Source: an uncultured Acidimicrobiales bacterium
Lineage (GTDB): Bacteria > Actinomycetota > Acidimicrobiia > Acidimicrobiales > SHLQ01
NCBI GenBank assembly: GCA_964517125.1
Contig: CAZFBD010000006.1
Location: forward strand, 27,429-91,428
Reading direction: 5' to 3'
DNA length: 64,000 bases
Numbering within the stretch: the first letter of the stretch is position 1; each line of letters begins with the position of its first letter. The position numbers and the translations under genes were made by a program. The notes beneath the pieces were generated by a model. It was not told the origin of the DNA, searched no databases, and saw only the letters and a program-made list of their open reading frames with translations. This document shows, piece by piece, positions 1 through 19,641 of the stretch.

Positions 1-2
1 AG

Positions 3-1235
3 TGTTGCCCGGAATGTATCGATCAGGGCTATACCGGGAACACCGACGAAGACGGCCAGTGGTGGTATGAAGCGGGCCAGCCGGGAGCGGACGACGTCGT
101 TGGGTTCCTGGTTCACGAGATGGACTTGGAGAGTCCGACGAGCGCTCGACGACTCGGTGAGACTTCCAACGAGACGCCCGAATATTCGCCTCGCCAACTA
201 ACGATCCGAGGGACCCTTCTCGCCGACTCCCGCCAAGGTCTCTACTACCTCCAGAACGCAATCACTCAAGCGCTCTCAAATCCTTGCGGACCGTGCGACG
301 GATACGAAGCGGAGATCCTTCCGTTCTGCCCGAGCGCCGACGCGCTAGAGCCGTCGATCCCTCCGGAGATCTGGCTCCCCACCGACCTCGAAGCATCCTT
401 TGCTCCGTGCGAAGGGATCGATTGTCCCGAAGCCGAACCGCTCGAAGCCGCTGGAGAAGTCCCTACCCAAGTCGACAACGGCATACGGACGATCCTTCGA
501 GTCCGCTTCCAATACTTCGACGTCGACCCCGAAAGCGAAGCGTCTCCGACGTGCTGGGGTGCCGACGTTATTATCGGCTTCGAGGTCTTCGAAGATAAAG
601 AATGGGGCGAAGAGATCTCCGGCCTTTGCGCCGAGCGGCCTCTCGTCGGCGACGATTGCTGGCCACACGACTTCTCAAAGTGCCTATGGCTCCCGGAGCT
701 TTCGGCGTGCGACTTCGGCGAGGATGCCGTAGCCGAAGAAGAGGATTCCTTCGAAGGCATTCGCCCTCTCGTCGGTCGGACTATCCGCTATTGCCAACCG
801 CTCTACACGACTCGACGCTCTTGCCTAACTCCGGTCCTCCCCGTCGGCGCGGAGGTAGCTCCGATCCTTCGGCTTAGTACCGGGACCGAAGAGCTAACGA
901 ACCTGCGCATCCTCTTTCATCCCGCCTATACCGGCGTCCCCGCTCCGGAGACCTGCCAAGGTTGGGAGTTCTACTCAAATCATGCGACATGCGCAAAGAT
1001 CATGATCGCTGGCCCGGTCCCGGATAACGCCCGGATCGAGATCGACGGCCGACGCCAACGATCTTTCATCTGGTGCGGAAGCGAAGAACCCGTAGCGGCC
1101 GAAGAGCTTATCGAGGGCTGGGATTGGCCGACTCTCGATCCGACCTGCCGCTATTGGGTTACTTCGGTAGCCGACTGCTTCAACACCTCCGAGGACGCCC
1201 GTCTAGCGCTCTCCTACTCTCCGAGGTTCGGCTGA
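3..1235 (+). CDS. Cys-rich virion (tail/baseplate-type) protein, 5' end probably outside window
   Basis: Track ORF 120..1235. The same frame is open with no stop from nt 3 (CCPECIDQGYTGN...), so the gene starts either upstream of the window or at ATG 120. 17 Cys in the 371 aa by hand count. First of a block of large co-directional structural-looking genes. Confidence 0.6.
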   Translation, partial: CCPECIDQGYTGNTDEDGQWWYEAGQPGADDVVGFLVHEMDLESPTSARRLGETSNETPEYSPRQLTIRGTLLADSRQGLYYLQNAITQALSNPCGPCDGYEAEILPFCPSADALEPSIPPEIWLPTDLEASFAPCEGIDCPEAEPLEAAGEVPTQVDNGIRTILRVRFQYFDVDPESEASPTCWGADVIIGFEVFEDKEWGEEISGLCAERPLVGDDCWPHDFSKCLWLPELSACDFGEDAVAEEEDSFEGIRPLVGRTIRYCQPLYTTRRSCLTPVLPVGAEVAPILRLSTGTEELTNLRILFHPAYTGVPAPETCQGWEFYSNHATCAKIMIAGPVPDNARIEIDGRRQRSFIWCGSEEPVAAEELIEGWDWPTLDPTCRYWVTSVADCFNTSEDARLALSYSPRFG

Positions 1236-2392: not shown

Positions 2393-2637
2393 TGACCGAT
2401 TTCAGCGTCTACGACCACCGATCTTCGGCTCCAACCTCAGACCCGGAACGAGACCTAGAGCGAGCCCTAGAGCGAATGGCCCTAGCTATTCGCGACCTCC
2501 AGGCGGCGGCTACCAGAAACCTCCCGCCTACCTTCCGATTCGTCATCGACTCCGAGACCGACACGGCCTACCTAGTCGACATCGTAAACAAGCGCCGAGC
2601 GGCGATAACCACAGCTAATTGGGAACCAACACCATGA
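2392..2637 (+). CDS. hypothetical protein
   Basis: Track ORF. ATG overlaps the upstream stop (TAATG). Confidence 0.6.
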   Translation: MTDFSVYDHRSSAPTSDPERDLERALERMALAIRDLQAAATRNLPPTFRFVIDSETDTAYLVDIVNKRRAAITTANWEPTP

Positions 2638-3638
2638 GCGACATTTCACTAGTAGATCCCGACTCGATCGGCTGTTGCGATCCGGAAGTAGATCCGGGCG
2701 ACGGCTATCCGGCCGAACCTCCCCCATGCACCTACGAGTCTTGCTCGATCGGCTTCTTGCCGATGACGGTTACGAGGGGAGCGCTCGGTGCCTACGTCCG
2801 GCTCTTCGGTCAATCCGGAGCGTCGAGCGAACGGCTACCCGAATCGTGCGACCCCGAAGACGAATGCGGTCTCCTCCGCTGCTACATCGACTCCGACGGC
2901 AAGAACCTCGGACTAGGTATCTCGCTCAAGGGAAGCCCGGCCGCTCTTGAAGTGGATTGCACCGACGAAGAGGGGAACGACCTCTACGTCAACGGGCTAA
3001 GGGCGATCAAGAACCCGGACGGATCATGCTCGCTCGGCACGCTCCCGATCCCGCTTCAAGGAAAGGTTTGCGTCGACGGCTCCGGCCAATGCACGACGAC
3101 CTTCCCTCCGGGCCAAGAGGGCGATGTCTTCGGATCGAGCGCGGACGGCGGTTGCGGTCCTAACCCTTGCGTCTCGCTGACCAACGAGGGTTGCTTCCCT
3201 ATGGTCGTGACTCCGAAGATTACGATCACGGGCGCTCGGCTCGGTCCCGGCGTTACCTACCAAATTCAGCCAAACGTTCAAGGTAACTTCGAAGACTCCT
3301 TCGACGCCTTCTCGAATAACGCCGGAGATTGCACCGTAAGCGACGCCGGAACCGGAGCTACCTCTTCGGCCGGAGACCCGGAGCACACCCACGAAGGGCC
3401 AAGCCATAGCCACACGGTGAATTGCAATGAGGGCGACCAGTCCTACTCGGGAACGATCGACCGACCGTTGATCCAGCTTGGGCCGGGCGAGACCTTGGAA
3501 TTCTGCGCTTCGGTATCTATTCGATACGACCGAGACAACGAGGGCGGCGGACTTCTCAACTTCGGAACCGTCAACGTTTGCCTCGACTACTCCAGCTTGG
3601 TAACGCCAGAAACTATCGCCGCGCTCGAAGGGAACTAA
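2634..3638 (+). CDS. Cys-rich structural protein (tail/fibre-type)
   Basis: Track ORF 2619..3638 trimmed to ATG 2634 (ATGA overlap with upstream stop). 18 Cys in 334 aa by hand count. His-rich patch GDPEHTHEGPSHSHT. Confidence 0.6.
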   Translation: MSDISLVDPDSIGCCDPEVDPGDGYPAEPPPCTYESCSIGFLPMTVTRGALGAYVRLFGQSGASSERLPESCDPEDECGLLRCYIDSDGKNLGLGISLKGSPAALEVDCTDEEGNDLYVNGLRAIKNPDGSCSLGTLPIPLQGKVCVDGSGQCTTTFPPGQEGDVFGSSADGGCGPNPCVSLTNEGCFPMVVTPKITITGARLGPGVTYQIQPNVQGNFEDSFDAFSNNAGDCTVSDAGTGATSSAGDPEHTHEGPSHSHTVNCNEGDQSYSGTIDRPLIQLGPGETLEFCASVSIRYDRDNEGGGLLNFGTVNVCLDYSSLVTPETIAALEGN

Positions 3639-6765: not shown

Positions 6766-7077
6766 ATGTCGGATGCACCGACTCCGGTTCCGCAACCGAG
6801 AGGTCGAAGGAATGCGGTTAAGACCCGACCCCTTTGGTACTCCTACCCAGGCGGCATGGTCAACCTCGACGAAGCTAGAGCCGTCACACTTAGCCGTTGG
6901 TCAAACGCCGTCAAGATATTGGTCCTCTTCGCTCAGTGCGATTCAAGCGAAGTTGTTTGGGAGGCTAGGGCTAACTCGGAGTGCCCGTCCGAGGCGAAAG
7001 CCGAACTCGACTTGGCCTACGAAGAGGCGACGGTAGTTCTGCAAGACATCGCTAAGAGGCTAGGGATCCGGCGATGA
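6766..7077 (+). CDS. hypothetical protein
   Basis: Track ORF. AAAGGA ribosome site upstream. Confidence 0.6.
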   Translation: MSDAPTPVPQPRGRRNAVKTRPLWYSYPGGMVNLDEARAVTLSRWSNAVKILVLFAQCDSSEVVWEARANSECPSEAKAELDLAYEEATVVLQDIAKRLGIRR

Positions 7078-7217
7078 GCGACGAGAGGGAAGAGGAATTC
7101 GCCCGAGCGAAAGAGTCTCTCGCTCGCAAAGGCTCGTCTCGCCGGTCGATCTTCCTACCCGGTCGCCCGAAGTTCCTATCGACCGTCATCGAGTTCATCA
7201 AGGCGAATCAATGGTAG
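7074..7217 (+). CDS. hypothetical small protein (47 aa)
   Basis: Below the 60-aa track cutoff. ATG 7074 overlaps the upstream stop (ATGA), and its own stop overlaps the next start (ATGGTAG). Translates MSDEREEEFARAKESLARKG... and fills an otherwise empty 130-nt gap. Confidence 0.5.
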   Translation: MSDEREEEFARAKESLARKGSSRRSIFLPGRPKFLSTVIEFIKANQW

Positions 7218-7450
7218 GGCTTCCTTCGAGATCAGCTCTGGCCTACGCGCTTCGGCGCGAGATACGGGACACGCTCGACGGCGAGGTCGCTCTAGCTACC
7301 CAAGACATGCTCTACGCCCGGATCGCCGACACGCTCGCCGCTTCCGGGATAGATGTCGATCGAGTTCCTACCGACCTAAGTACGGCGGAGCCGAGCGAAC
7401 ACATAACGTGCCGATGCGAAAGGTGTATACGCAATGCGATCCTTGGATAG
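7211..7450 (+). CDS. hypothetical protein
   Basis: Track ORF, coupled to its neighbours. Confidence 0.55.
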   Translation: MVGLPSRSALAYALRREIRDTLDGEVALATQDMLYARIADTLAASGIDVDRVPTDLSTAEPSEHITCRCERCIRNAILG

Positions 7451-7658
7451 GGAAGACGAGAATCTACTTAAGGACATGGCGGACGAAGTCGAGCAACTTC
7501 GTAGAGAGTGGTCCGCCCTCATGGTCCGGCGAGACGATTTGATAGTCGACGTCCTGGAGCGGAACCCGAAAGCCGCTAAGGTCGATGTCGCTCTCCACCT
7601 CGGAGTCTCCGACACGATTATTCGCAGGTCGGAGCAAGCGGTTAAGGACCGACGTTGA
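7434..7658 (+). CDS. helix-turn-helix DNA-binding protein
   Basis: Track ORF. Segment AAKVDVALHLGVSDTIIRRSEQAV looks like an HTH. Confidence 0.5.
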   Translation: MRSLDREDENLLKDMADEVEQLRREWSALMVRRDDLIVDVLERNPKAAKVDVALHLGVSDTIIRRSEQAVKDRR

Positions 7659-7978
7659 CCGAGGGCTACTGGTGCTTCGAGAAAGCGGCCGACGGCGAGG
7701 GCTATGAGGTTCGGGTTTGGAGCCCGAAGCCGCCGACCTGGACGATAGCTATCGCCCACTGGCACGAAGTCGAGGGAGGCTTCGAAGCCGAAGAGGTCTA
7801 TTCGATCGACGAGACCAACCTTCGATTCGACTCGCTCGATGAAGCCTTCGCTCGGATACCGCCCGAGTTCCGAGACGAAGCGGCGAATAACCTCCGAGCC
7901 CAAATCGGCGAAGAGGCAAAGACCAATCAAGCAACGATCGATCGGTGGCTCGCCTCCGATCCCAAACGAAAGGCATGA
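7655..7978 (+). CDS. hypothetical protein
   Basis: Track ORF. TTG start in a TTGA overlap with the upstream stop. Confidence 0.5.
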   Translation: MTEGYWCFEKAADGEGYEVRVWSPKPPTWTIAIAHWHEVEGGFEAEEVYSIDETNLRFDSLDEAFARIPPEFRDEAANNLRAQIGEEAKTNQATIDRWLASDPKRKA

Positions 7979-7981
7979 ACC

Positions 7982-8395
7982 ATGACCACCAATGAATCAA
8001 CCAAGAGCGAGAGCCTCGCTAGCGTCGTCGGATTTACGGCGGCCCTCGCGGAAGCTCGATCAACCGGCGACTTCTGGGAAGGGATGGCCCGAAGCTCGAT
8101 GGCGGTCTTCGTCTTCGCCGCCGACCTTATGCAGACGGGTCAAGAGGGAGCGGAGCCGCACGGCGTGAGCGCCGATTACTTCGACAACGGCCAAGAGTCT
8201 GGATGGCGTATCACCGTTGCCGAGAATCCCTTCGGTAGCGATCAGGGCGCTCTCCACGGCGTGGTCCTCGCCAATACCGTAGAGCACGCTTTGATCGAGC
8301 ACCTTTGTGCCTCCTTCGACCCTCAGCGCTCGCCTTCCCTTGTCCGATCCCTCGAAGAGCGAGACGCCCACGACTCACCGCCGAGCGCCGACTGA
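7982..8395 (+). CDS. hypothetical protein
   Basis: Track ORF. AAAGG upstream. Confidence 0.6.
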   Translation: MTTNESTKSESLASVVGFTAALAEARSTGDFWEGMARSSMAVFVFAADLMQTGQEGAEPHGVSADYFDNGQESGWRITVAENPFGSDQGALHGVVLANTVEHALIEHLCASFDPQRSPSLVRSLEERDAHDSPPSAD

Positions 8396-8685
8396 TGCCT
8401 TGCTTTGACGGAGGCCCTCGCGAAGGAGTCGACCCGATGGCGAAGGAGCGGCTCGACCGGGTAACCCGGATCGCCTGTTCGGCCTTGACCGCCATCGAGT
8501 CCTACGGCCTAGAGATTCCGGAAGACGCTCGGGCCTGGTGGGAGGTTCACAAGGAGCAAGACGCCAAGCGAGAGCGGGAAGCGGAAGAGGTCAACGAGCG
8601 GATTCGAACCCGACTCGCTCTCTTGGAAGATATCCGTAGTCGGGTATCGGATGACGAGTGGGAGATCTTGGGGTTCAGGCCATGA
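8395..8685 (+). CDS. hypothetical protein
   Basis: Track ORF 8305..8685 trimmed to ATG 8395 (TGATG overlap). Confidence 0.55.
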   Translation: MPCFDGGPREGVDPMAKERLDRVTRIACSALTAIESYGLEIPEDARAWWEVHKEQDAKREREAEEVNERIRTRLALLEDIRSRVSDDEWEILGFRP

Positions 8686-9032
8686 GCGAGTGGGTAGGCG
8701 AGAGGATCCTCACCGCTCGGGAAGTCGGCGAGAAGGTTCTCGAAATTCAGGACGACGACATAGGCCGTCTTGAGTTCCTTCTCGATCACACATCGAAGAA
8801 TCCTGGCTTCGGCGTAGAGATCTGGGTCGACGCTCTGCCGACGATTCAAGACGTAGCCGAAGCGATGGGAATCGAGATCGACGACTACGTACCGGGCGGC
8901 GGCTGGTGGGCGAGCACGTCGATCAAGGTCGCCGGACTAGAAGAGAAGGCCAACGCCGAGAGGACTCAGCGCACGAGCCTAGGTCGTTGCCCGATTTGTT
9001 CGGCCAAAGGAGGTTGCGGTGCCAAGCGATAG
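8682..9032 (+). CDS. hypothetical protein
   Basis: Track ORF 8658..9032 trimmed to ATG 8682 (ATGA overlap). Confidence 0.55.
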   Translation: MSEWVGERILTAREVGEKVLEIQDDDIGRLEFLLDHTSKNPGFGVEIWVDALPTIQDVAEAMGIEIDDYVPGGGWWASTSIKVAGLEEKANAERTQRTSLGRCPICSAKGGCGAKR

Positions 9033-9207
9033 ATACCTAGCCGTCCGCAAGCGAGATCTTCAAGAGCACATAGCTCGGATGAGGGAGGAGAAGCGGACCC
9101 TTCGAGGCATGGGAGCCAACGTACCGGATCACCTTAAGGGGATAGACGGAGCGATCGAAGCGGCCGAAGCCGAGCTTCGCGGAGTGATGATGATGGGAAG
9201 GAGCTAG
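9019..9207 (+). CDS. hypothetical protein
   Basis: Track ORF, GTG start, overlaps the upstream end. Confidence 0.45.
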   Translation: MPSDRYLAVRKRDLQEHIARMREEKRTLRGMGANVPDHLKGIDGAIEAAEAELRGVMMMGRS

Positions 9208-9209
9208 CT

Positions 9210-9602
9210 ATGTGTCAGGTAGGAGACGGGGAGTACCCGACCTTCTTTAACCAGACCTCGATCAAGGCTTCGCGGAGCGCTCACCGCTGCACGGAATGCG
9301 GAAGAGGTATCGAGGTCGGCTCGCCGTACGTACGGACCGAAGGTCTCTGGGATGGCGAATTCCAAACGTTCAAGACGTGCGAGCACTGCTCCGCCTTGAC
9401 TCGCTGGTTCACGGTCGTTTGCAACGGGACGCTATTCGGCGGACTCTACGAGGACCTCCACCACCACTGGGACGACTATCGCCAACCGGAGCTAGGGATC
9501 CTCAAGACCATGATGCTTCGTAGCTGGAGGGGCGTAACGCCCTCGACGATCTCGGGCCTAGTCGAGAGGAACGAGCTTTACCGGGAATCGTTGGCGGCAT
9601 GA
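9210..9602 (+). CDS. zinc-ribbon protein
   Basis: Track ORF. GGAAGGAG ribosome site. CTECG...CEHC cysteine pairs. Confidence 0.6.
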   Translation: MCQVGDGEYPTFFNQTSIKASRSAHRCTECGRGIEVGSPYVRTEGLWDGEFQTFKTCEHCSALTRWFTVVCNGTLFGGLYEDLHHHWDDYRQPELGILKTMMLRSWRGVTPSTISGLVERNELYRESLAA

Positions 9603-10078
9603 GCGAACCGGATCGCAACGACCCGACCGTCTACCTCTCGATAGCGGCCCGAGCAGCTCACGCCAGGGCGAGAGGATTCCCGGCCGAAGTTCCCTACACC
9701 TTCGCTCACGGCGTAGGAGTAGACGACGTAGTAGGCGAAGATCTTCCCCCTGTGGAGCAAATCGACGATGAGGGAAGGCTCATAGCTCTGCCTCCCCCTC
9801 CCGCTTCCCAGTTCCGCTGGGACCGCTTAGGGAAGCTGCTAGCCGTTCTCACGGGACTGGTCATCTGGGGATTCTTGCTCGGCGAGGCCATGATCTGGGT
9901 TGCCGAGACGGACCGGATTACGAAGGTCCCGAGGTCGACCGGTTGGCTTGCGGCCTTCTACACCGCAAGCTTTGGCATCGGCGTCGTCCTTCTCAAATTC
10001 TTCGAGAGCTGCTGGACGCTAGCGAAGCTCGCCGCTCGCCGAGCAGTGCGTTGGCTTACCGAGGCGAAGGTAAGCTAG
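9599..10078 (+). CDS. membrane protein
   Basis: Track ORF, ATGA overlap. Two hydrophobic segments (LLAVLTGLVIWGFLLGEAMIWV, WLAAFYTASFGIGVVLL). Confidence 0.6.
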   Translation: MSEPDRNDPTVYLSIAARAAHARARGFPAEVPYTFAHGVGVDDVVGEDLPPVEQIDDEGRLIALPPPPASQFRWDRLGKLLAVLTGLVIWGFLLGEAMIWVAETDRITKVPRSTGWLAAFYTASFGIGVVLLKFFESCWTLAKLAARRAVRWLTEAKVS

Positions 10079-10091
10079 CCCTCGGAAATTT

Positions 10092-10163
10092 GCACCTATG
10101 GCGAAGTGGAAACGCTGGGGCCTGCAAAGCCTCGATGCGAAGGTTCGATTCCTTCTAGGTGCT
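10092..10163 (+). tRNA. tRNA-Cys: tRNA-Cys (anticodon GCA)
   Basis: Hand-folded cloverleaf. Acceptor GCACCTA/TAGGTGC (7 bp). D arm GCG/CGC with an A.A mismatch and a GG in the loop. Anticodon stem GGGGC/GCCTC, loop CTGCAAA. 5-nt variable loop. T arm GAAGG-TTCGATT-CCTTC. Discriminator T (U73), the known CysRS identity base. No encoded CCA. Confidence 0.9.
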
Positions 10164-10410
10164 CTGGAAAGGTTTGGAGATGAGATTCTTAATAGCTTGG
10201 AGCTACTACCGGGAGCAGATGAAGGACTACCCGAATACGCCGAAGGCGCAAGCCCGTCTCTGGGCATGGCGTCGAGCGGGCTTGTAGGGGCGAAGCTAGA
10301 GTAGGTACCGACTAGCGGCCCGAGTCTCCCCCCCCAATCCTTCGATCGAGGAGATACAAGAACCCATGAGCCTGGCGAAACCTCCATTCAGATGAGGCGG
10401 CAAGAAGAAG

Positions 10411-10458
10411 AAACCGCGACCTCAACGGCCTAGTCGACCGGCCGCCAAACCGCGACCT
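10411..10458. repeat. 12-nt direct repeat AAACCGCGACCT x2 flanked by inverted GAAGAAG/CTTCTTC
   Basis: Copies at 10411-10422 and 10447-10458. GAAGAAG lies just before the first copy and CTTCTTC just after the second. Confidence 0.6.
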
Positions 10459-10494
10459 TCTTCTCGTTTCGCTCCGTGAGAGCGATCTAACTAA

Positions 10495-10524
10495 GGGACC
10501 AGCTTCCTTCGGGAGGTTGGTCCT
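10495..10524. terminator. bidirectional hairpin terminator (13-bp stem, TTCG loop)
   Basis: GGGACCAGCTTCC-TTCG-GGAGGTTGGTCCT followed by TTGCCTTTC. Lies between the plus-strand tRNA block and the convergent minus-strand genes. Confidence 0.6.
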
Positions 10525-10532
10525 TTGCCTTT

Positions 10533-10718
10533 CTAGAACCCGGCCGAGAATCTCGCCCAGTGGATCTGGCCGCCGTAGGTGATGCTCGCTCGATGCGAGG
10601 AGAGATGCCGAGCCAGCGCTCTAGCGTTCTCCGCCCACGTTGAGCACGTCGAGCAAGCGTCGATCGGGCAAGGCGTTTCGAGGAGTCCGCCTTCGGTATC
10701 GGTGAGATGAGTTTCCAT
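10533..10718 (-). CDS. hypothetical protein (61 aa), leaderless
   Basis: Track ORF 10533..10754 trimmed to ATG 10718. This ATG lies 7 nt downstream of the -10 of a conserved minus-strand promoter, and the track start sits inside that promoter's -35. Confidence 0.55.
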   Translation of the reverse strand: METHLTDTEGGLLETPCPIDACSTCSTWAENARALARHLSSHRASITYGGQIHWARFSAGF

Positions 10719-10725
10719 GCCACCA

Positions 10726-10764
10726 ACCATGCCGGTCTGCCGTAGATAAATCAACCCCTATTTA
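10726..10764 (-). promoter_or_regulatory. conserved extended promoter (minus strand)
   Basis: Reverse complement reads gtaaATAGGGG-TTGATT-17 nt-CATGGT-7 nt-ATG. Confidence 0.65.
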
Positions 10765-11517
10765 CTACGAGGGACGGGAAGCCTCTTCGCAGATCCAGCA
10801 ACGGCCCGGCCGACCCCAATGCAAATCAGGTTCCGCTACGTACATCAATCGATGACCGGTAACGATCCAACCGACTACGCCGACCTCATCGCTAACGATC
10901 CTCGCCGTAGCGTCTCCGTCTCCGGCCGACGGGTAGTTTCCAGCGGAGACCGGCCGGTAGAGCCCGTAGTGAGCCGGTTCGGCTCGGATGGATTCAGCCC
11001 TCAGAGATCCGTCGGCGAGGCCAGCGAGAAGAGAAGCGGAGCGCTGCAGATATCGAGAGTAGGCTTCGTACTCCTTCGCCTCCCGGCCGAGATGCTTCGA
11101 TACCTCTTCCCACTTCTGGATAGCTCCTACGTCGAAACGCTCGTCGTTGGTAGTCGCCAAACGAGAGGCGGCGGACTGGAGCCATTCCCGAGCGACGCGA
11201 GAAGCGTTAGGAGTAGCGTCCTCGATAGAGGTAAGGCTTCGCCGGAGAAGCGACCCTCTCACCGTCCAGCGGTCTTCGCCTTCCGGGCTTAGCGTCGCCG
11301 AGAGGATGTAGGGAGTCCCGTTGATCTTGACCCAATCGGGATCGACTCCGAAGCCGTTGCCGAAGTGAATACAAGGAGTCCCGTCAGCGAGCCGAGAGAA
11401 TCGGTAGTGAACATCCCCCGAGCACCGGAGCGCCGTTAGGGGGAGGACGCCCGAAGGCTCCGTAGTATCGAGAGTTTGCATACGGGTAACCATAGTCGGG
11501 CGTTTAGCTAAAGTCAT
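10765..11517 (-). CDS. hypothetical protein
   Basis: Track ORF 10765..11559. First ATG (MTLAKRP..) is at 11517. Start is uncertain because no clear ribosome site is present. Transcribed divergently from gene 11674. Confidence 0.5.
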   Translation of the reverse strand: MTLAKRPTMVTRMQTLDTTEPSGVLPLTALRCSGDVHYRFSRLADGTPCIHFGNGFGVDPDWVKINGTPYILSATLSPEGEDRWTVRGSLLRRSLTSIEDATPNASRVAREWLQSAASRLATTNDERFDVGAIQKWEEVSKHLGREAKEYEAYSRYLQRSASLLAGLADGSLRAESIRAEPAHYGLYRPVSAGNYPSAGDGDATARIVSDEVGVVGWIVTGHRLMYVAEPDLHWGRPGRCWICEEASRPS

Positions 11518-11606
11518 AGTTAGAAGTCGAGAGATCCACGAGCCGGGCAAGCCGATCAACTAAGATCCGGTAGTAGTCGCCGTGACTACTTTGGTCGACT
11601 AGGTTG

Positions 11607-11635
11607 GTAATTACTTACGGTAATTACGTAATTAG
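11607..11635. promoter_or_regulatory. three GTAATTA(C/G) boxes, candidate operators in a divergent control region
   Basis: GTAATTAC at 11607 and 11620 (8-bp palindromes) and GTAATTAG at 11628. The last abuts the AGGGG-TTGACT promoter. Confidence 0.4.
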
Positions 11636-11668
11636 GGGTTGACTAGGTACCCTCGCGTCGCACAACAT
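11631..11668 (+). promoter_or_regulatory. conserved extended promoter
   Basis: attAGGGG-TTGACT(11639-11644)-18 nt-CAACAT-5 nt-ATG 11674. Confidence 0.6.
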
Positions 11669-11673
11669 TGAGT

Positions 11674-11991
11674 ATGGACGAAACCCTATGCAAGCACGAT
11701 CTCCCTACGTTCTGCTGTACGTACTGCATGACTAAGCCCAAAGCCGCCCCGATGTCTCTCGAAGAGAAGTTCGCCGACGGCAAGGGCGATACGCTGGTCG
11801 AGTACGTAAGCGAAACGACCGGGCTAACCATCTTCAAGTGGAAGGCTCCGCTCGAAGCGAAGATTCGCTACGTTCTGGTCGAGCCGAGCATGGCTCCTTT
11901 CCCGGTCGGGATATTCAACCTCTTGCGAGAGGCGAAGGAGCAAGCCGTGGCGATAGCTTTCGGTTCCGAAGCGGGAGAGACGGCCGCTTGA
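11674..11991 (+). CDS. hypothetical protein, leaderless
   Basis: Track ORF 11668..11991 (TTG) trimmed to ATG 11674, directly after the promoter -10. N-terminal Cys cluster CKHDLPTFCCTYC. Confidence 0.6.
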   Translation: MDETLCKHDLPTFCCTYCMTKPKAAPMSLEEKFADGKGDTLVEYVSETTGLTIFKWKAPLEAKIRYVLVEPSMAPFPVGIFNLLREAKEQAVAIAFGSEAGETAA

Positions 11992-12314
11992 GTTTCCGAT
12001 TGGTCGAGCGCGGATTCTGGATAGCCCAATTCGAGGATCTCGTCTCCGGCTCCCACGTTCTCTTCCTTCGCCAGGTCGGCGACGGCTGGATAGCGGAGCA
12101 CTGGGGATGCCACGACCGAGGGGATACGAAGGACCGGATCGATCGAGGAGAGCCGATACTTGAATCCGCTCGCCTCGCCCGGCTCAAGCTAGAGCTACAA
12201 GCCGAGCATCGCTCATCATGGGGCATGTCGGATCGCCCGGCTACCTTCCTAGAGAAACGTCTAGCGAGGACGCTCGGGACGAAGGCGAAACGAGAGATCG
12301 GGACGGTTAGGTAA
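11988..12314 (+). CDS. hypothetical protein
   Basis: Track ORF 11838..12314 trimmed to TTG 11988 (TTGA overlap with upstream stop). Start is uncertain. Confidence 0.45.
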   Translation: MSFRLVERGFWIAQFEDLVSGSHVLFLRQVGDGWIAEHWGCHDRGDTKDRIDRGEPILESARLARLKLELQAEHRSSWGMSDRPATFLEKRLARTLGTKAKREIGTVR

Positions 12315-12350
12315 TTAGGGGTTGACGTAATACCTATCTACCCTTAAGCT
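12313..12350 (+). promoter_or_regulatory. conserved extended promoter
   Basis: aattAGGGG-TTGACG(12322-12327)-17 nt-TAAGCT-6 nt-ATG 12357. Confidence 0.7.
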
Positions 12351-12356
12351 TGAACC

Positions 12357-12719
12357 ATGACCAACCGAGCAACCCCGAAGATCACCTACTCGCCAAACGA
12401 ACTCGTCGGCTTCGATATCCTCGCCGACGGCGTCAAAGTCGGTAACTGCTACAAAGCTCAGCGAGGCCCGAAGTGGTTTGTCCGGACGGGCGGCGGACCG
12501 GTAACCCGAGTCGGCTCACGAAGCCGGGCCGGGAACCTTCTCCTCGAACGTCTTACCGACGCCATCACCGAGGTTGCCCCTTACCACGAGCAGGCTCGAC
12601 TTATCGTCGAGGATCCGGTTCGAAAGCTCATGTTCTCCCGTCTCGCCGAGATGGGTCACGTCAAGGCCGATCTCGTCGGCGGCGAAGTTCTCCACGTTTG
12701 GACGGAGGTCCAGAAATGA
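12357..12719 (+). CDS. hypothetical protein, leaderless
   Basis: Track ORF. ATG 6 nt after the -10. Confidence 0.65.
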   Translation: MTNRATPKITYSPNELVGFDILADGVKVGNCYKAQRGPKWFVRTGGGPVTRVGSRSRAGNLLLERLTDAITEVAPYHEQARLIVEDPVRKLMFSRLAEMGHVKADLVGGEVLHVWTEVQK

Positions 12720-12955
12720 CCCTTGTGAATTGCTACCACACGACCGTTACCGGAGCCGATGAGAACGGCGAGAAGTTCCAGTACGTCATGGGCGGCTGGA
12801 GCGTTAGCAAGAGCGATGCTCTTATCCGTATCGGTGAACACGCCAAGTCCGAGGGTCTCGTCTCTTGGAAGTTCTCCGACACGACCGTTGCCGCTTCCAA
12901 CGAGCCCGCGGAGTTGCTCGGGAATACGATCACCTACTCGGGCGGCCCGGCTTAG
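12716..12955 (+). CDS. hypothetical protein
   Basis: Track ORF 12473..12955 trimmed to ATG 12716 (ATGA overlap). Confidence 0.6.
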   Translation: MTLVNCYHTTVTGADENGEKFQYVMGGWSVSKSDALIRIGEHAKSEGLVSWKFSDTTVAASNEPAELLGNTITYSGGPA

Positions 12956-12997
12956 TCATCACCCCGATAGGTCGGATCTGTAGTAGAATTGGGTATC

Positions 12998-13021
12998 GAG
13001 GTCCTCCCCTTCGGGGACCTC
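12998..13021 (+). terminator. hairpin terminator
   Basis: GAGGTCC(T)CC...GGGGACCTC, about 9 bp with one bulge, 40 nt after the stop at 12955. Confidence 0.45.
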
Positions 13022-13050
13022 CCTAACCTCCCTAACCTCCCTAACCTCCC
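13017..13050. repeat. 9-bp tandem repeat CCCTAACCT x3 (3.8 copies counting partial ends)
   Basis: acct-ccctaacct-ccctaacct-ccctaacct-ccc read directly. Intergenic, between the hairpin and the start of gene 13068. Confidence 0.85.
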
Positions 13051-13067
13051 GACCCGAAGGAATCAAT

Positions 13068-13505
13068 TTGAAGACCTCAACTATTGTCGAGCTTCTCCTT
13101 GCGTTTACCCTGGCGATGTTGGCCCTCCTCTACTTCGTGGGTCGCTCCGAAGAACTAGGCGCAGAGGAAGAGTCCCTTACCGTCTCGACGCTCCCGGCGA
13201 CGACAACTACCGAGCCGAAGGAGTTCCCCTTCGAGGTCTCCGGTGAGTGTGTCTTTAACGAGCTTCTCTCGATGTGGCAATTCGAGGGAGACGTTACGAA
13301 CTCCTCCGACGAAGCCCTAGACATAATCGTCTTGCTCGATATGGGTATCGATGAACCCTCCGACCTTCCGTCCTTGACGGTCGTGCGGGAGGTACCGGCC
13401 GGAGCCACGGTCGACTTTACGCTTAGCGACTTCGCTCGCGACGCCGGAGAGTCCGCCGACGCTGGCGTATGCGAGAACCCGAGAGCGAAGAAGATCGGTA
13501 ACTAG
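13068..13505 (+). CDS. secreted or membrane-anchored protein
   Basis: Track ORF, TTG start with GAAGGA upstream. N-terminal hydrophobic segment IVELLLAFTLAMLALLYFV. Confidence 0.55.
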   Translation: MKTSTIVELLLAFTLAMLALLYFVGRSEELGAEEESLTVSTLPATTTTEPKEFPFEVSGECVFNELLSMWQFEGDVTNSSDEALDIIVLLDMGIDEPSDLPSLTVVREVPAGATVDFTLSDFARDAGESADAGVCENPRAKKIGN

Positions 13506-13537
13506 GGGTTGACTTATCTAAGGGCTGGGATCATGCT
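13503..13537 (+). promoter_or_regulatory. conserved extended promoter
   Basis: ctAGGGG-TTGACT(13509-13514)-17 nt-CATGCT-6 nt-ATG 13544. Confidence 0.65.
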
Positions 13538-13543
13538 TGAGGT

Positions 13544-13723
13544 ATGACTATTGCTCAAGGATGGGCCAAGGCCCGGACCGGTAAGGAACTATCCGAAGCA
13601 GAAGCTATCCAAGTCTGCATCGAAGCCCTGGAGACCGAGATCGAGGCGACCGCTTTCCCGGTCGATGAATCATGGGCTCCAGTAGGAATCGAGAACCTCC
13701 GGGCTCGGCTCAACGATTCATAG
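13544..13723 (+). CDS. hypothetical small protein (59 aa), leaderless
   Basis: Missing from the track (one residue under the cutoff). ATG sits 6 nt after the promoter -10. Translates MTIAQGWAKARTGKELSEAEAIQVCIEALETEIEATAFPVDESWAPVGIENLRARLNDS. Confidence 0.6.
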   Translation: MTIAQGWAKARTGKELSEAEAIQVCIEALETEIEATAFPVDESWAPVGIENLRARLNDS

Positions 13724-13832
13724 AACGGAGCTAGACGTAAACTCCCGTTACGCCTAGTCTCGTAGAAGGAGGAATCGCTACCGGCCGGAGCCTGGCCCCT
13801 TGGCTCGCTCCGGTCCGCTGCTCACCTCCGAA

Positions 13833-13877
13833 GAAGAGGACCGGTTTGGACATGGATCTCCTTGGCCGGTCCTCTTC
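13833..13877 (+). terminator. hairpin terminator (12-bp perfect stem, 21-nt loop)
   Basis: GAAGAGGACCGG ... CCGGTCCTCTTC. Confidence 0.55.
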
Positions 13878-13910
13878 TCGCGTCTCGGGATAAATCTTAG
13901 GGAATTACTA

Positions 13911-13947
13911 AATAGGGGTTGACGTATAGACCAAGCGGGCTTATCGT
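13911..13947 (+). promoter_or_regulatory. conserved extended promoter
   Basis: aatAGGGG-TTGACG(13919-13924)-17 nt-TATCGT-7 nt-ATG 13955. Confidence 0.7.
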
Positions 13948-13954
13948 TGTCTTC

Positions 13955-14161
13955 ATGAACAAAGAGCAGGCAATCAAGGCCAGCAAGATCAAACCAGGAA
14001 TGACCGTCCAGGTAGACCGGTTCGCTTCGAACCCACTAGCCGGAACCTTTCAAGAGATCGCCACCATCGAGCGGAACGGGCCAAGCGTTATGGCTTTCAC
14101 GGTCAAGTCCAACGGCTCAACGATCGTCTTCAACTGTTCCGACGACGTTCCGTTTCGGTAA
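13955..14161 (+). CDS. hypothetical protein, leaderless
   Basis: Track ORF 13919..14161 starts on the TTG of the -35 hexamer. Trimmed to ATG 13955. Confidence 0.65.
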   Translation: MNKEQAIKASKIKPGMTVQVDRFASNPLAGTFQEIATIERNGPSVMAFTVKSNGSTIVFNCSDDVPFR

Positions 14162-14189
14162 CCCGACCCAAGCCCTAGGAGGCTCCGCA

Positions 14190-14444
14190 ATGACCATCTC
14201 GATCGACATCTCCAATACCGTTGGCCAAGGCAGCGCTATCGGCGCTAACGGCTCTCCGGTCTTCGAGGTCGAGGTAGTTCATCCGACCCGAGCCTGCAAG
14301 GACGTCGAGCGGCACGGAGTCTTCCTCGGGTTCGGGAAGGTCGTCTCGGGCGGTCCCGTCAACGGCTACGAAGTTGGCTTCAAATTCGAGTCGATTCAAG
14401 GCGAGCCGTCCGAAGGCATCGAGCCGTGCGACCTTTGCTTCTGA
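14190..14444 (+). CDS. hypothetical protein
   Basis: Track ORF. AGGAGG ribosome site 7 nt upstream. Preferred over antisense ORF 14175..14510. Confidence 0.6.
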   Translation: MTISIDISNTVGQGSAIGANGSPVFEVEVVHPTRACKDVERHGVFLGFGKVVSGGPVNGYEVGFKFESIQGEPSEGIEPCDLCF

Positions 14445-14460
14445 GCTAGACTCGTGGCCG

Positions 14461-14889
14461 ATGCAATCCAGCAAGGCGAAGAAGAAGTCCGAGGATCGCG
14501 CTAGAGACATCGAGTGGATAACGGTCCGGCTAGTCCCGGCTTCTCGCTGGCCCGAGATCGCCGACTACGTACCGGAGGAGCATCGGTCCGATCGGCTAGT
14601 TGTCCCGGCCGAAGCGTGGTACCCGAGCTGCGACTCCCATCCAGGTGATAGGTCGGCTTGCCTCGCCGCCTTCTGGATTCCCTGCGAGCAACCCGGCCGA
14701 TCGATGGATCGCCATACGTGGCGACCTCACGAGGACGGATGCGACGTTTGCGCCGAATTCATAGCGGCTCAACCTCACGAGTTCGGCTCGTGGCCGGAAG
14801 AGGACTGGAACAACCTCCCGTCCTTGGAGTTCGGCTCGTGGTTCGGGCCGGTAGCTCCCAATCCTAAAGAATTGCTAAATAGGGGTTGA
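14461..14889 (+). CDS. hypothetical Cys/Trp-rich protein
   Basis: Track ORF 14374..14889 trimmed to ATG 14461 to avoid overlap with 14190..14444. Its TGA stop is the GA of the next promoter's TTGACG. Confidence 0.5.
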   Translation: MQSSKAKKKSEDRARDIEWITVRLVPASRWPEIADYVPEEHRSDRLVVPAEAWYPSCDSHPGDRSACLAAFWIPCEQPGRSMDRHTWRPHEDGCDVCAEFIAAQPHEFGSWPEEDWNNLPSLEFGSWFGPVAPNPKELLNRG

Positions 14890-14914
14890 CGTAATGCCCA
14901 ACCTTCTATAGGGT
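14876..14914 (+). promoter_or_regulatory. conserved extended promoter
   Basis: taaatAGGGG-TTGACG(14886-14891)-17 nt-TAGGGT-6 nt-ATG 14921. Confidence 0.7.
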
Positions 14915-14920
14915 TGAGGT

Positions 14921-15118
14921 ATGAAGACGTACGGAGAACTCGCTAAGTCGGACACCTTCCTGGTATTCGACATCGCAAGCGGAACCAACATTGCGACCAA
15001 GGTGACGGCCGCTCTCCACGCCGAAGGAATCGTGAACCTCGCGGTTCAGTTCCCAGGCAGGGAAGGGGCAACGTTCCTCGGAAGGTTCCCGGCCGATCGA
15101 GAGATCAAGACCTACTAG
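14921..15118 (+). CDS. hypothetical protein, leaderless
   Basis: Track ORF. ATG 6 nt after the -10. Confidence 0.65.
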   Translation: MKTYGELAKSDTFLVFDIASGTNIATKVTAALHAEGIVNLAVQFPGREGATFLGRFPADREIKTY

Positions 15119-15147
15119 GGGAGATACGAAAGCCAACTGAATAGGAA

Positions 15148-15330
15148 TCGAGCAGCTAGCCGAGAGCTGGTAGCGCGGGCTCCGAACCTTCGTCGAGAAG
15201 GGGACCGTTAGAAGCGGCTGGGATAAGAACCCCAGGGACACGGTAGGACTGGCCTCAATGCGAGGGCGCTAACCCCAAGCGAATCGACTGGACACGAGAG
15301 ACGGATTCGGGCTCTCGGCTAGCTTCTCGA
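15148..15330 (+). ncRNA. candidate structured RNA / complex 3' element closed by a long-range stem
   Basis: AGCTAGCCGAGAGC (15154-15167) pairs perfectly with GCTCTCGGCTAGCT (15311-15324). TCGAG/CTCGA extend the stem past 1-nt bulges. The 143-nt interior holds several small hairpins (CCTTC-GTCGA-GAAGG, CTGGG..CCCAG). No ORF and no family assignment. Confidence 0.3.
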
Positions 15331-15340
15331 ATAAATTCCT

Positions 15341-15378
15341 AAATAGGGGTTGACGTAATGCCGAGGGCTAGGCATACT
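15341..15378 (+). promoter_or_regulatory. conserved extended promoter
   Basis: aaatAGGGG-TTGACG(15350-15355)-17 nt-CATACT-7 nt-ATG 15386. Confidence 0.7.
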
Positions 15379-15385
15379 TGTATAC

Positions 15386-15613
15386 ATGAACGACATCAAA
15401 GAAATTGGAACCATCCTCTGGATCGACCTCTCGACTGTGAATGAAATCTCAGTCGGCCACGACTTCGAAGAAGGCGACTTCTGGGTAGTCGTCGACGGAA
15501 CTTTCATCGACGTAGACGACTCGGTCGCCGCCGAGATCTTCGCCGGTATGGAGCTGCTCGAAGCGTACCGAGCCGAAGAGGGCGACGTCGTAGAGCTTTC
15601 CTACTCCCTCTAA
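15386..15613 (+). CDS. hypothetical acidic protein, leaderless
   Basis: Track ORF. ATG 7 nt after the -10. Confidence 0.65.
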   Translation: MNDIKEIGTILWIDLSTVNEISVGHDFEEGDFWVVVDGTFIDVDDSVAAEIFAGMELLEAYRAEEGDVVELSYSL

Positions 15614-15628
15614 ATCTCCCCCCAACGC

Positions 15629-15668
15629 AAGAAGCCCGTCTAGTCGCTACAGACCGGACGGGCTTCTT
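15629..15668. terminator. hairpin terminator (12-bp perfect stem)
   Basis: AAGAAGCCCGTC ... GACGGGCTTCTT, 15 nt after the stop at 15613. Sits at the boundary with the convergent minus-strand block. Confidence 0.6.
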
Positions 15669-15686
15669 CGCGCTTAGGATTCGGTT

Positions 15687-15851
15687 ATGGGATGCGTCAA
15701 CGGAAGCGACTGCAAGGCCGTCGATCGAGACGGACCCCTTACCCCTGACGGCCTCTGTAGCGTTTGCGTAGCTCGGCTCCCGGTGGACCCTTCGGTGCTC
15801 GCCTCCGCCGAGATTGAGATAGGCCAGCTACTCGACGAGCTAGGGCTTTAG
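15687..15851 (+). CDS. possible small Cys-containing protein (54 aa)
   Basis: Not in the track. ATG 15687 translates MGCVNGSDCKAVDRDGPLTPDGLCSVCVARL... Weak ribosome site, located after a terminator, and overlaps the 3' end of the convergent gene by 4 nt. Confidence 0.3.
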   Translation: MGCVNGSDCKAVDRDGPLTPDGLCSVCVARLPVDPSVLASAEIEIGQLLDELGL

Positions 15852-16285
15852 GTCGAGAGGTTCGCCGCGTGACGATGAAGCGTTTGGAGCCCGTTAAGGA
15901 CGGCCTCTAGAGCGTTGACGGCGTCCCTCTTCGAGCGAAATAGCTGGAGACTGATTTGCCACGAGAGGTAGAGATCCGAAGCTTCCAGGTCGGCGACGGC
16001 CTTGCGGCTCGACTCGGTATGGCGGATCGCCGGAGGATCTCCTTCTCCCGGCTCGACGACGGCGAAGGTCGAGAGGAAGGCCGTAGCGTGGGCTTTCTTG
16101 TAGTCGTTGTCCGCCTCAGCGGTCGCCCTCGCTAGAGGTTCTAGCTCCTTGATCTCCTTACGAAGATCTCGGGCGACGCTAGCGATCCAGCCAGACAAGA
16201 CCGTCGGATTCGAAAGGTGCTGGCTTAGATCTTCGTCGACGTTGAGTTGGTCGAGTACGGCGGCCGTAGCTCCGCTACTGGTCAT
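15848..16285 (-). CDS. hypothetical helical protein
   Basis: Track ORF. AGGAGA ribosome site on the minus strand. Confidence 0.6.
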   Translation of the reverse strand: MTSSGATAAVLDQLNVDEDLSQHLSNPTVLSGWIASVARDLRKEIKELEPLARATAEADNDYKKAHATAFLSTFAVVEPGEGDPPAIRHTESSRKAVADLEASDLYLSWQISLQLFRSKRDAVNALEAVLNGLQTLHRHAANLST

Positions 16286-16440
16286 GGTTTCTCCTATCGG
16301 GAAGGTTCGATTCTTTGAACGGGCAATTGCCTCGCTTGCATCCTCCGAACCCGGCCGGACGGCAAGCCGAGCAGCGGGGATGCGAGCAGCTGATGCAAGT
16401 CCCTTGAGCGCCCGTTACTCGGGCGAGGGATATGGCGGCG

Positions 16441-18124: not shown

Positions 18125-18814
18125 TTGAGTGGTTGGGCGAATAGGATCGTCGGCTTTGAGCCGGAGGTAAAACCGTCGGAGTTGATCCCTCATCCGAGGA
18201 ACCCAAGACTCCACGGCGATAACCAGCGGGCGGCGATGGGCGAGACGCTGGCTTCGATCGGCTGGACTACGCCGGTAATCGCCAACCAGAAGACCAACCG
18301 GATAATCGACGGCCACATGCGAGTCGAAGAGGCCGCAGCAAACGGCGAGACCGTTCCGGTTATGTGGGTCCATCTGAATACCGAGGAAGAAGAGCACGCA
18401 GCCCTTGCGACCCTCGATCCGTTAGCGCTCATGGCTACCTTCGACGATCAGATCTTGACCGATCTAGTCGAGATAACTGACTCGGTGCCGAGCGGAGTTA
18501 GCGACCTCCTGGCCCAGATAGCGAACTACGATCCTGTCGAAGAACTCGAAGAGATAGCCGGGAGGGTTCCCGCTCCGGTCGCCGACCTGCCGATGCCGGA
18601 GGTCGACCTAACGTCGAGAGGCTCAGAGATCTCGGTCCCGAATCCGGCCGAACGGCGCGACGCCTGGGCTGAGGCCGGAGTGCGTTCGATTATCCTCCCC
18701 TTCGACGCCGATACCTACAAGCTAGTGGTCGAGTCCTTCGCCGAAGCTCGGGAGCGCTTGGGCGTCGACTCCAATGCCGAAGTGGTAGTGAGTCTTCTCG
18801 GCGTGGAGCAATGA
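18125..18814 (+). CDS. ParB-like N-terminal (ParB/Srx) domain protein
   Basis: Track ORF, TTG start with GAAAGG upstream. Motifs IPHPRNPRLH and IIDGHMRVEEAAANGETVPV. Confidence 0.7.
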   Translation: MSGWANRIVGFEPEVKPSELIPHPRNPRLHGDNQRAAMGETLASIGWTTPVIANQKTNRIIDGHMRVEEAAANGETVPVMWVHLNTEEEEHAALATLDPLALMATFDDQILTDLVEITDSVPSGVSDLLAQIANYDPVEELEEIAGRVPAPVADLPMPEVDLTSRGSEISVPNPAERRDAWAEAGVRSIILPFDADTYKLVVESFAEARERLGVDSNAEVVVSLLGVEQ

Positions 18815-19641
18815 AAGAGATCGAGGTCTCTCGATCCGACTTCAAGCCGGTACGAGGGGAAGCCGAATACGCGGAACCTCCAGGTAAAGACTCCGTCGTC
18901 TTGACGGATCATCTCGGCATCGACGCCGAGACGGGCTGTCCGGTGATAGCTCATTCGACGGTTGACTTCGGCGAGATCGGCGAAGCTCTCTTCGAGTGGG
19001 CTCCGCATATGCCTTGGAAGGGCGAGGGCTCCTCCAAGAACGAAGTCCGACTCTCCGGTATCAATAACGCTCACGTCATCTTCGGCTATGCGGCCCCGGT
19101 CCCTATGCGTCGGCGATGGGCGGCTTCCTCTACGGCTTTCAACCGGGAGTATCCGAAGGCGGCTTACGCCTTGGAAGTCCTCGCCGCCCAGTGCTCTGAT
19201 TGGTTCGAGGCCAACCTTCCCGAAGCGTATGAGAATCACCTACAAGCTATCGACGGTCTTCACGACGGTTGGAAGCTAGCCGGGCGAGCGCCTTGGACTT
19301 CCGGGATCATCAACAAGTCGGCAGCCCTCCGCTACCACCGGGACTCCGGGAACTCCGTAGGATCCTGGTCCGCGATGATCGTTATGAGGAAGGGCGTCGG
19401 CGGCGGGCTCCTCCACGTAAGAGACCTTGACGTCTACCTAGCGTGCGACCACATGAGCCTTTCGATCTTCGACGGACAGGCCCTAACCCACGGCGTTACT
19501 CCGCTGGTCCATAGCGAGGACCCCGAAGAGATTCGGATATCGATCGTCTTCTACACCAAGACCGGAATCGTTAGGGCCGAAGCTCCGGGAGACGAGATAA
19601 TTCGCGGGCAGATCCGAGCATCGAGGGGCATCGAAGAATGA
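18811..19641 (+). CDS. 2OG-Fe(II) dioxygenase, TET/JBP-like
   Basis: ATGA overlap. Motifs YHRDSGN (HxD), LTHGVTPL (second His) and RISIVFY (RxS 2OG arginine), in the order and spacing of double-stranded beta-helix dioxygenases. The wording resembles TET catalytic cores as I recall them. Confidence 0.7.
   Translation: MKEIEVSRSDFKPVRGEAEYAEPPGKDSVVLTDHLGIDAETGCPVIAHSTVDFGEIGEALFEWAPHMPWKGEGSSKNEVRLSGINNAHVIFGYAAPVPMRRRWAASSTAFNREYPKAAYALEVLAAQCSDWFEANLPEAYENHLQAIDGLHDGWKLAGRAPWTSGIINKSAALRYHRDSGNSVGSWSAMIVMRKGVGGGLLHVRDLDVYLACDHMSLSIFDGQALTHGVTPLVHSEDPEEIRISIVFYTKTGIVRAEAPGDEIIRGQIRASRGIEE

Follow-up and report, generated by a model that had tools for sequence, protein, structure and literature searches.

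A single tRNA-Cys gene in a tailed phage with a cysteine-rich virion block, binned with an Acidimicrobiales-type bacterium

We found that a novel tailed phage, co-binned with an uncultured Acidimicrobiales-type bacterium, carries one tRNA gene, and that this tRNA reads the codons of the amino acid most over-used by the phage. The gene is almost certainly a genuine phage tRNA-Cys. The best available explanation of its function, which we consider fairly probable, is that it raises the supply of Cys-tRNA for Cys-rich virion proteins. The stretch of DNA under study (64,000 nt; hereafter the window) is G000:C6:27429-91428 in a 4.76-Mb bin of 158 contigs. Coordinates with the prefix C6 refer to the contig, and plain coordinates refer to the window.

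Identity and integrity of the tRNA gene

Two overlapping features were considered at this locus:
10092..10163, plus strand, tRNA-Cys(GCA), 72 nt including the discriminator U73, CCA not encoded (ARAGORN and Rfam)
10098..10304, plus strand, track ORF with poor coding potential, its first 22 codons overlapping the tRNA

Both tRNA predictors accept the fold. ARAGORN reported exactly one tRNA in the 64-kb window, a tRNA-Cys(gca) at 10092-10164 (+), and Rfam RF00005 matched 10092-10163 (+) over model positions 1-71 of 71 with 60.4 bits (gathering score, 29; E = 1.4e-10). According to the sequence and the ARAGORN drawing, the acceptor stem has 7 bp that are all Watson-Crick (GCACCUA/UAGGUGC). The D stem has 3 bp (G10-C25, C11-G24, and G12-C23) with a closing mismatch A13.A22. 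The cloverleaf is completed by a 5-bp anticodon stem with a 7-nt loop, a 5-bp T stem, and T54-psi55-C56, as seen in the sequence, the alignment, and the drawing; the anticodon loop is CUGCAAA and the T loop is UUCGAUU. The universal nucleotides U8, A14, G15, G18G19, U33, G53-C61, and A58 are all kept. A thermodynamic fold (-26.2 kcal/mol) recovered three of the four arms, namely, the acceptor, anticodon, and T arms. On the 3′ side, the bases CUG stand in place of an encoded CCA. The initial annotation had described a complete tRNA-Cys(GCA) cloverleaf with U73 and a D stem closed by an A.A mismatch, and every detail that it listed could be seen in the sequence or the drawing.

The anticodon GCA and U73 are the major determinants for cysteinyl-tRNA synthetase (CysRS) according to a review (PMC9976931), in agreement with the initial annotation, and both are present in the phage tRNA. 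The G15:G48 Levitt pair is a strong CysRS determinant in Escherichia coli but is conserved in few bacteria (PMC9976931). The phage tRNA has a regular G15:C48 pair and the variable loop GAUGC. Because G15:G48 is not universal (PMC9976931), its absence here is compatible with membership in the tRNA-Cys class.

The ORF that covers the tRNA was scored with a codon model trained on the phage. It reached 0.033 per codon, compared with a minimum of 0.060 and a mean of 0.21 among the 125 called phage genes, and its GC3 is 0.55 compared with 0.70 in phage genes. By these values, this ORF is most likely spurious, as had been proposed from the sequence.

The phage replicon and its host bin

Contig C6 is 103,589 bp in length, is free of Ns, and was assembled as a circle, as its two ends overlap exactly over 55 bp. 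Its GC content of 59.9% is below the mean of the bin, 63.5% (the MAG of Acidimicrobiales type with which it is binned has ~64%). It codes for a large terminase, a 1620-aa tape measure protein, and an endolysin, together with major-tail-like, head-tail-adaptor-like, and tail-fiber-like proteins. A search of C6 for tyrosine and serine recombinases (PF00589 and PF00239) gave no match. Based on these features (circle, GC content, virion genes, and no recombinase), C6 is a complete tailed phage, binned with a bacterium, and probably virulent. The phage is also novel; by terminase, its closest cultured relatives are actinobacteriophages at ~33% identity, and neither the terminase nor the tRNA is present in 25 other genomes of the same genus. 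The claim that the tRNA is phage-encoded thus stands, with a circularly assembled 103.6-kb tailed-phage genome as its location, and the tRNA-Cys is the sole tRNA on C6. Two loci are referred to below:
C6:22434-27296, tape-measure gene (PHROGs)
G000:C29:30621-31517, host CysRS gene region

The bin contains one other tRNA-Cys gene, a CysRS gene, and a gene for a CCA-adding enzyme; about two thirds of its own tRNAs have no encoded CCA. Three genes of the CysRS family (PF01406) and a tRNA cluster for Gly, Cys, and Val also seem to fit an actinobacterium, a group that has CysRS plus the mycothiol ligase MshC. The link between phage and host is based on binning and on one rare acceptor pair (C2:G71) that they have in common. 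Neither CRISPR arrays nor sequence shared with C6 was found in the bin. Furthermore, the bin avoids TA (observed/expected 0.28), CTAG (0.06), and TTAA (0.02), whereas the corresponding values of the phage are 0.84, 1.02, and 0.48. That the phage does not follow the TA/CTAG avoidance of the bin may weaken the host assignment, and the bin may not be the true host.

Cysteine excess of the phage proteome

Genes were called with a simple and rather crude codon-model caller of our own, which gave 3855 genes in the bin and 125 in the phage. Over all genes, Cys accounts for 1.92% of residues in the phage and 0.90% in the bin, a 2.13-fold excess that is the largest among the 20 amino acids. The codon TGC occurs 16.4 times per 1000 codons in the phage and 6.5 times in the bin (2.5-fold), so the Cys codon frequency is indeed higher than in the presumed host. 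In the phage, 85% of Cys codons are TGC, an exact match to G34 of the tRNA. The excess persists when the comparison is limited to ORFs of at least 150 aa or at least 300 aa.

The excess is concentrated in the 34-kb structural block located 5′ of the tRNA (C6:304-34137), where Cys reaches 3.27% compared with 0.90% in the bin (3.61-fold). The next amino acid in this block is Asn at 1.37-fold. The rest of the phage, which has the same GC content, contains 1.15% Cys, about 1.3-fold the bin value. None of the 117 host segments of 34 kb exceeds 1.39% Cys. Among proteins of at least 200 aa, 12 of 45 in the phage reach 3.26% Cys, compared with 1.4% of host proteins. The initial annotation had pointed to Cys-rich structural and zinc-ribbon proteins, and this was qualitatively right: of the 549 Cys residues of the phage, the structural block holds 338 and proteins with paired CxxC motifs hold 79.

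Individual Cys-rich proteins include:
C6:18528-19259, predicted major tail protein (PHROG "major tail protein"), 7.4% Cys
1..1235, plus strand, C-terminal part of a Cys-rich tail protein that has 455 aa and 23 Cys (5.1%) in all and follows the tape-measure gene
2619..3638, plus strand, 339-aa Cys-rich distal tail protein, 18 Cys (5.3%), 66.5% identity to the counterpart in the related phage L008
3643..6291, plus strand, 882-aa Cys-rich distal tail protein, 31 Cys (3.5%), 82% identity to L008 and 61% to L005

An adaptor-like protein has 8.5% Cys. Given the predicted high-copy major tail protein, the excess reaches beyond low-copy tail-tip proteins. Pfam searches with 20 Cys-rich or neighboring proteins found nothing.

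At the codon level, TGC is not the most skewed codon. Its 2.5-fold excess ranks 8th among 61 codons, behind CTA (13.9-fold) and also TTA, ATA, GTA, and AGG, and the phage has no tRNA for any of these five codons despite their stronger skew. The NTA codons (CTA, TTA, ATA, and GTA) are 6-14-fold enriched in the phage because the bin avoids TA/CTAG and the phage does not.

As a separate observation, the virion block also encodes, outside the window, a 1556-aa protein with 74 Cys (L001:8469-13139, which is G000:C6:8469-13139). It contains approximately eight tandem 45-aa repeats with two conserved Cys each (...C...VCN.DT..YD...TTT.GV...PV..PT), and had no match in Pfam or PHROG.

Genomic surroundings and transcription signals

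The features that flank the tRNA are:
9599..10078, plus strand, last protein gene of the rightward structural/tail block, 159 aa (ORF list and our own gene calls)
10411..10431, minus strand, terminator-like hairpin between the convergent genes and the tRNA (pattern scan, consensus match)
10533..11559, minus strand, convergent gene pair, 73 aa and 264 aa, bounding the 3′ side of the tRNA (our own gene calls)
10747..10760, minus strand, first copy of TAGGGGTTGACKTA, one mismatch

In the unbroken plus-strand run that precedes the tRNA, large virion/tail genes are followed by the tape measure, then by distal tail proteins, and finally by small ORFs. The last of these genes (9599-10078) ends with a TAG stop 13 nt 5′ of the tRNA on the same strand. 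Its 159-aa product had no match in Pfam or PHROG, and the same was true for the products of the two convergent genes; for the 264-aa protein, the Atlas provided no lead. The hairpin at 10411..10431 would halt antisense transcription short of the tRNA, on the reading that it is a terminator, and the count of such terminator-like sites in the pattern scan was not above that in shuffled sequence. The scan detected no plus-strand terminator or sigma-70-like promoter adjoining the tRNA, and the structure of the 277 nt on its 3′ side was not significant (z = +0.84).

The phage promoter block TAGGGGTTGACKTA has 15 copies, all within C6:38175-94675; these lie at window positions 10747-60491 and at C6:94675, and for the window the chance expectation is 0.48 copies. 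A single copy is on the minus strand, and the structural block contains none. The remaining 4.66 Mb of the bin contains only one copy at one mismatch or fewer. None of the 15 copies falls in the 37-kb block that ends at the tRNA. The tRNA is the terminal element of this TAGGGGTTGACKTA-free block, which is presumably late. As no copy precedes it, the tRNA is probably made at the end of a late transcript.

Among the other genes in the window, the protein encoded at 18811-19641 carries the PHROGs label "queuine tRNA-ribosyltransferase" (phrog_6059, 3e-36).

Comparison with cellular tRNA-Cys genes

The tRNA body is of the generic compact bacterial type, as a word made of its D arm and anticodon occurs across many bacterial phyla, in at least 119 genome contigs. 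The best full-length cellular match, among the 121 such genes listed, has 86% identity. Pairing is kept where the phage tRNA differs from this match: 31:39 is C-G for U-A, 51:63 is A-U for G-C, and the acceptor, though entirely different, is fully paired. Because the changes relative to the nearest cellular tRNA-Cys are compensatory, they argue for selection on the function of the tRNA. In a set of 300 genomes from the phylum of the host, the top match had 83% identity over positions 8-61, and none was found in the order or class of the host. One unpublished genome, G268, enters this comparison as one of 66 genomes that were counted, and none of our claims depends on it. Exact or degenerate words of the tRNA were absent from IMG/VR and from JGI metagenome contigs, and a blastn search against 50,697 cultured phage records gave no match.

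Compared with the canonical bacterial tRNA-Cys of the E. coli type, the phage tRNA has in common the GCA anticodon, U73, G15, the 3-bp D stem with A13.A22, and the 72-nt compact body. Unlike E. coli tRNA-Cys with its G15:G48, it has G15:C48. It also differs from the common bacterial G1-G2-C3 acceptor in having G1-C2-A3, and its best cellular match, among those listed, is the 86% match described above.

The tRNA-Cys of the host is located as follows:
G000:C12:37580-37655 (L004:7581-7656), host tRNA-Cys, 76 nt

This tRNA is remodeled, with a large D loop and the acceptor GCGUCGG (G1-C2-G3 for the usual G1-G2-C3). The 5′ half of its D loop is 88% like the host tRNA-Tyr. The remodeled form was found with 95-97% identity in 14 of 15 genomes of the genus and with 87-89% identity in two other families; other genomes of the same order have the standard GGCGACG acceptor form. 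This 76-nt tRNA and the phage tRNA have very different bodies. The two are identical in the anticodon loop CUGCAAA and the closing pair C31-G39. They also have the combination of G1:C72 and C2:G71 in common, which is specific to the genus on the host side and was found elsewhere in two of 115 cross-phylum bacterial tRNA-Cys genes and in none of the eight phylum members sampled. This acceptor match may be taken as a post hoc hint of host matching, not as proof.

Related phages

Searches with the terminase and the 882-aa tail protein led to four related phages (L005/6, L008/9, L135/6, and L137/8), which have 45-82% identity to our phage in those proteins. Their distal tail proteins have 3.0-5.7% Cys. 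No tRNA was found within the 6-21 kb read around the tail genes of these partly read contigs, and nothing in L008 or L005 corresponds to the ~9.7-kb window segment that holds the tRNA (~6766-16440). Since these relatives have equally Cys-rich tails and no tRNA in the regions read, the tRNA is not required for such a tail. For the same reason, the Cys-rich tail is ancestral and the tRNA probably an add-on of this larger phage, perhaps a helpful one. By terminase, P0002 is nearest to our phage (67% identity); in its gene table, the genes at the corresponding convergent junction are 132 nt apart, and a tRNA could fit between them. When the 882-aa tail protein and the 159-aa product of the gene before the tRNA were each scanned against IMG/VR, no relatives turned up.

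Function of the phage tRNA-Cys

Our preferred explanation starts from what the genomes contain, namely, an intact tRNA gene located on a phage, the Cys excess, and host genes for CysRS and a CCA-adding enzyme. From these we infer that the gene is co-transcribed with late genes, that its RNA is processed and charged, and that it benefits the fitness of the phage. A non-integrating tailed phage of ~103.5 kb, with an actinobacterial (Acidimicrobiales-type) host, would transcribe its tRNA-Cys gene, probably as the tail end of a late transcript. The 5′ end of the tRNA would be freed by host RNase P and the 3′ end trimmed by host enzymes, after which the host CCA-adding enzyme would add CCA. Host CysRS would then charge the phage tRNA by reading U73 and GCA. 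Late in infection, in a host cell with a single tRNA-Cys gene, the extra Cys-tRNA would meet the 3.6-fold Cys demand of the virion. The initial annotation had likewise proposed that the tRNA supports the translation of Cys-rich proteins. Our analysis supports this interpretation: the Cys excess bears out its part on Cys-rich proteins, and the function itself is probable. Against the function are the Cys-rich tails of the relatives, the 8th rank of TGC, and a host assigned by binning.

A different role, which we consider unlikely, would be insurance, with the phage tRNA-Cys replacing host tRNA-Cys that is destroyed by a defense nuclease or by general decay. Such a loss would hit a phage with a Cys-rich virion particularly hard. 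There are proposals, and for some cases evidence, that phage tRNAs counter defenses that deplete tRNAs (PMC10264068; PMC11555353). In Mycobacterium tuberculosis, the toxin VapC4 has tRNA-Cys as its only target, and its cleavage leaves ribosomes stalled at Cys codons (PMC13096801). Pfam matches above the cut-off mark at least five ORFs of the bin as PIN-domain ORFs, and the phage tRNA, with a body far from that of the host, could be spared by a body-reading nuclease. However, no tRNA-Cys-specific nuclease was identified in the bin, and no tRNA repair enzyme was found among the phage proteins scanned against Pfam or PHROGs. The diagnostic anticodon-loop change is also absent, as both loops are CUGCAAA and both tRNAs have C-G at 31:39. 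Moreover, insurance alone leaves unexplained why the only tRNA carried is for Cys, the most over-used amino acid. This last point also counts against a neutral or nearly neutral passenger, gained with the lineage-specific 9.7-kb accessory segment and without measurable benefit. Such an origin would fit the lack of a counterpart to ~6766-16440 in L008 and L005, relatives that do without a tRNA there, and the occurrence of the exact tRNA nowhere else in the viral, metagenome, and cultured-phage collections. All four stems are nevertheless paired and the universal nucleotides kept despite at least 14% divergence from the cellular tRNA-Cys genes found, and we regard a passenger as quite unlikely.

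The acceptor match raises a further reading, in which a tRNA-Cys tuned to a host lineage with a remodeled tRNA-Cys, and with the rare C2:G71 top on an otherwise canonical compact body, might provide a Cys-dependent phage lineage (major tail protein, 7.4% Cys) with both extra supply and a replacement that escapes a body-reading tRNA-Cys nuclease. We regard this as speculative and quite unlikely; if true, these phages and Acidimicrobiia would compete over the decoding of Cys. Two readings in which the locus is not primarily a translation tRNA are very improbable, and we rejected both. Phages often integrate into tRNA genes, and the gene could contain an attP remnant or component, but C6 has no PF00589 or PF00239 match and shares no words with the bin, and the phage tRNA has no sequence relationship to the host tRNA-Cys. 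Because a Ro60/Rsr ortholog is present in the phage, the tRNA-like module of a Y RNA was also considered. Unlike YrlA, however, the tRNA has an unpermuted order and a normal anticodon arm, and it lies ~46-55 kb from Ro60, directly 3′ of which the actual YrlA-like match is located.

Comparison with known phage tRNAs

Whether phages carry tRNAs for codon compensation or for counter-defense is debated. Compensation for codon or amino-acid usage (Bailly-Bechet, Vergassola & Rocha, 2007, PMC1987346) is a close parallel to the supply explanation, as far as the summary of that work in PMC10264068 goes. By that summary, the likeness lies in a non-integrating phage with a tRNA for codons that it uses far more than the host, and in the placement of the tRNA with late/structural genes. 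The present case departs from the model so summarized in that the match is at the level of the amino acid (Cys ranks first of 20) and not of the most skewed codons, the NTA codons, which have no phage tRNA. It also departs from that outline in having one tRNA only, and its excess stems from the Cys-rich proteome of the virion instead of a difference in GC content.

Nuclease-evading phage tRNAs (van den Berg et al., 2023, PMC10264068; Azam et al., 2024, PMC11555353) resemble the present case in the actinobacterial-type host, and Cys is a tRNA species with a dedicated toxin in mycobacteria. Their escape from nucleases has been proposed to occur through anticodon-loop changes (PMC10264068). Unlike those tRNAs, the phage tRNA-Cys has the same anticodon loop as the host tRNA, and escape mutations are absent. 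A large survey preprint (PMC13015707) contained nothing specific on tRNA-Cys.

The phage tRNA-Cys is a clean but ordinary instance of a known phage strategy and no new kind of system. As a natural case, it is clean in that a single phage tRNA matches the amino acid over-used 3.6-fold in the virion and the counter-defense signature is absent; it supports the supply model at the level of the amino acid, not the codon. The more unusual trait that it highlights is the strongly Cys-rich virion in an uncultured actinobacterial phage group.

Ro60 ortholog and its downstream region

The Ro60/Rsr ortholog of the phage is located outside the window at L003:1961-4169 (G000:C6:92960-95168), with matches to TROVE (2e-19) and the Ro60 vWA domain (5.8e-48). 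The 500-nt gap that follows it contains a sub-threshold YrlA match (L003:4033-4105; 32 bits, E 4e-4) with a permuted T-arm/D-arm module. Four tandem stem elements in the same gap match the nematode sRNA family RF01656 (ceN72-3_ceN74-2), which we take to be a stem-bulge, Y-RNA-homolog family. This region is a candidate for Ro60 together with a Y-RNA array.
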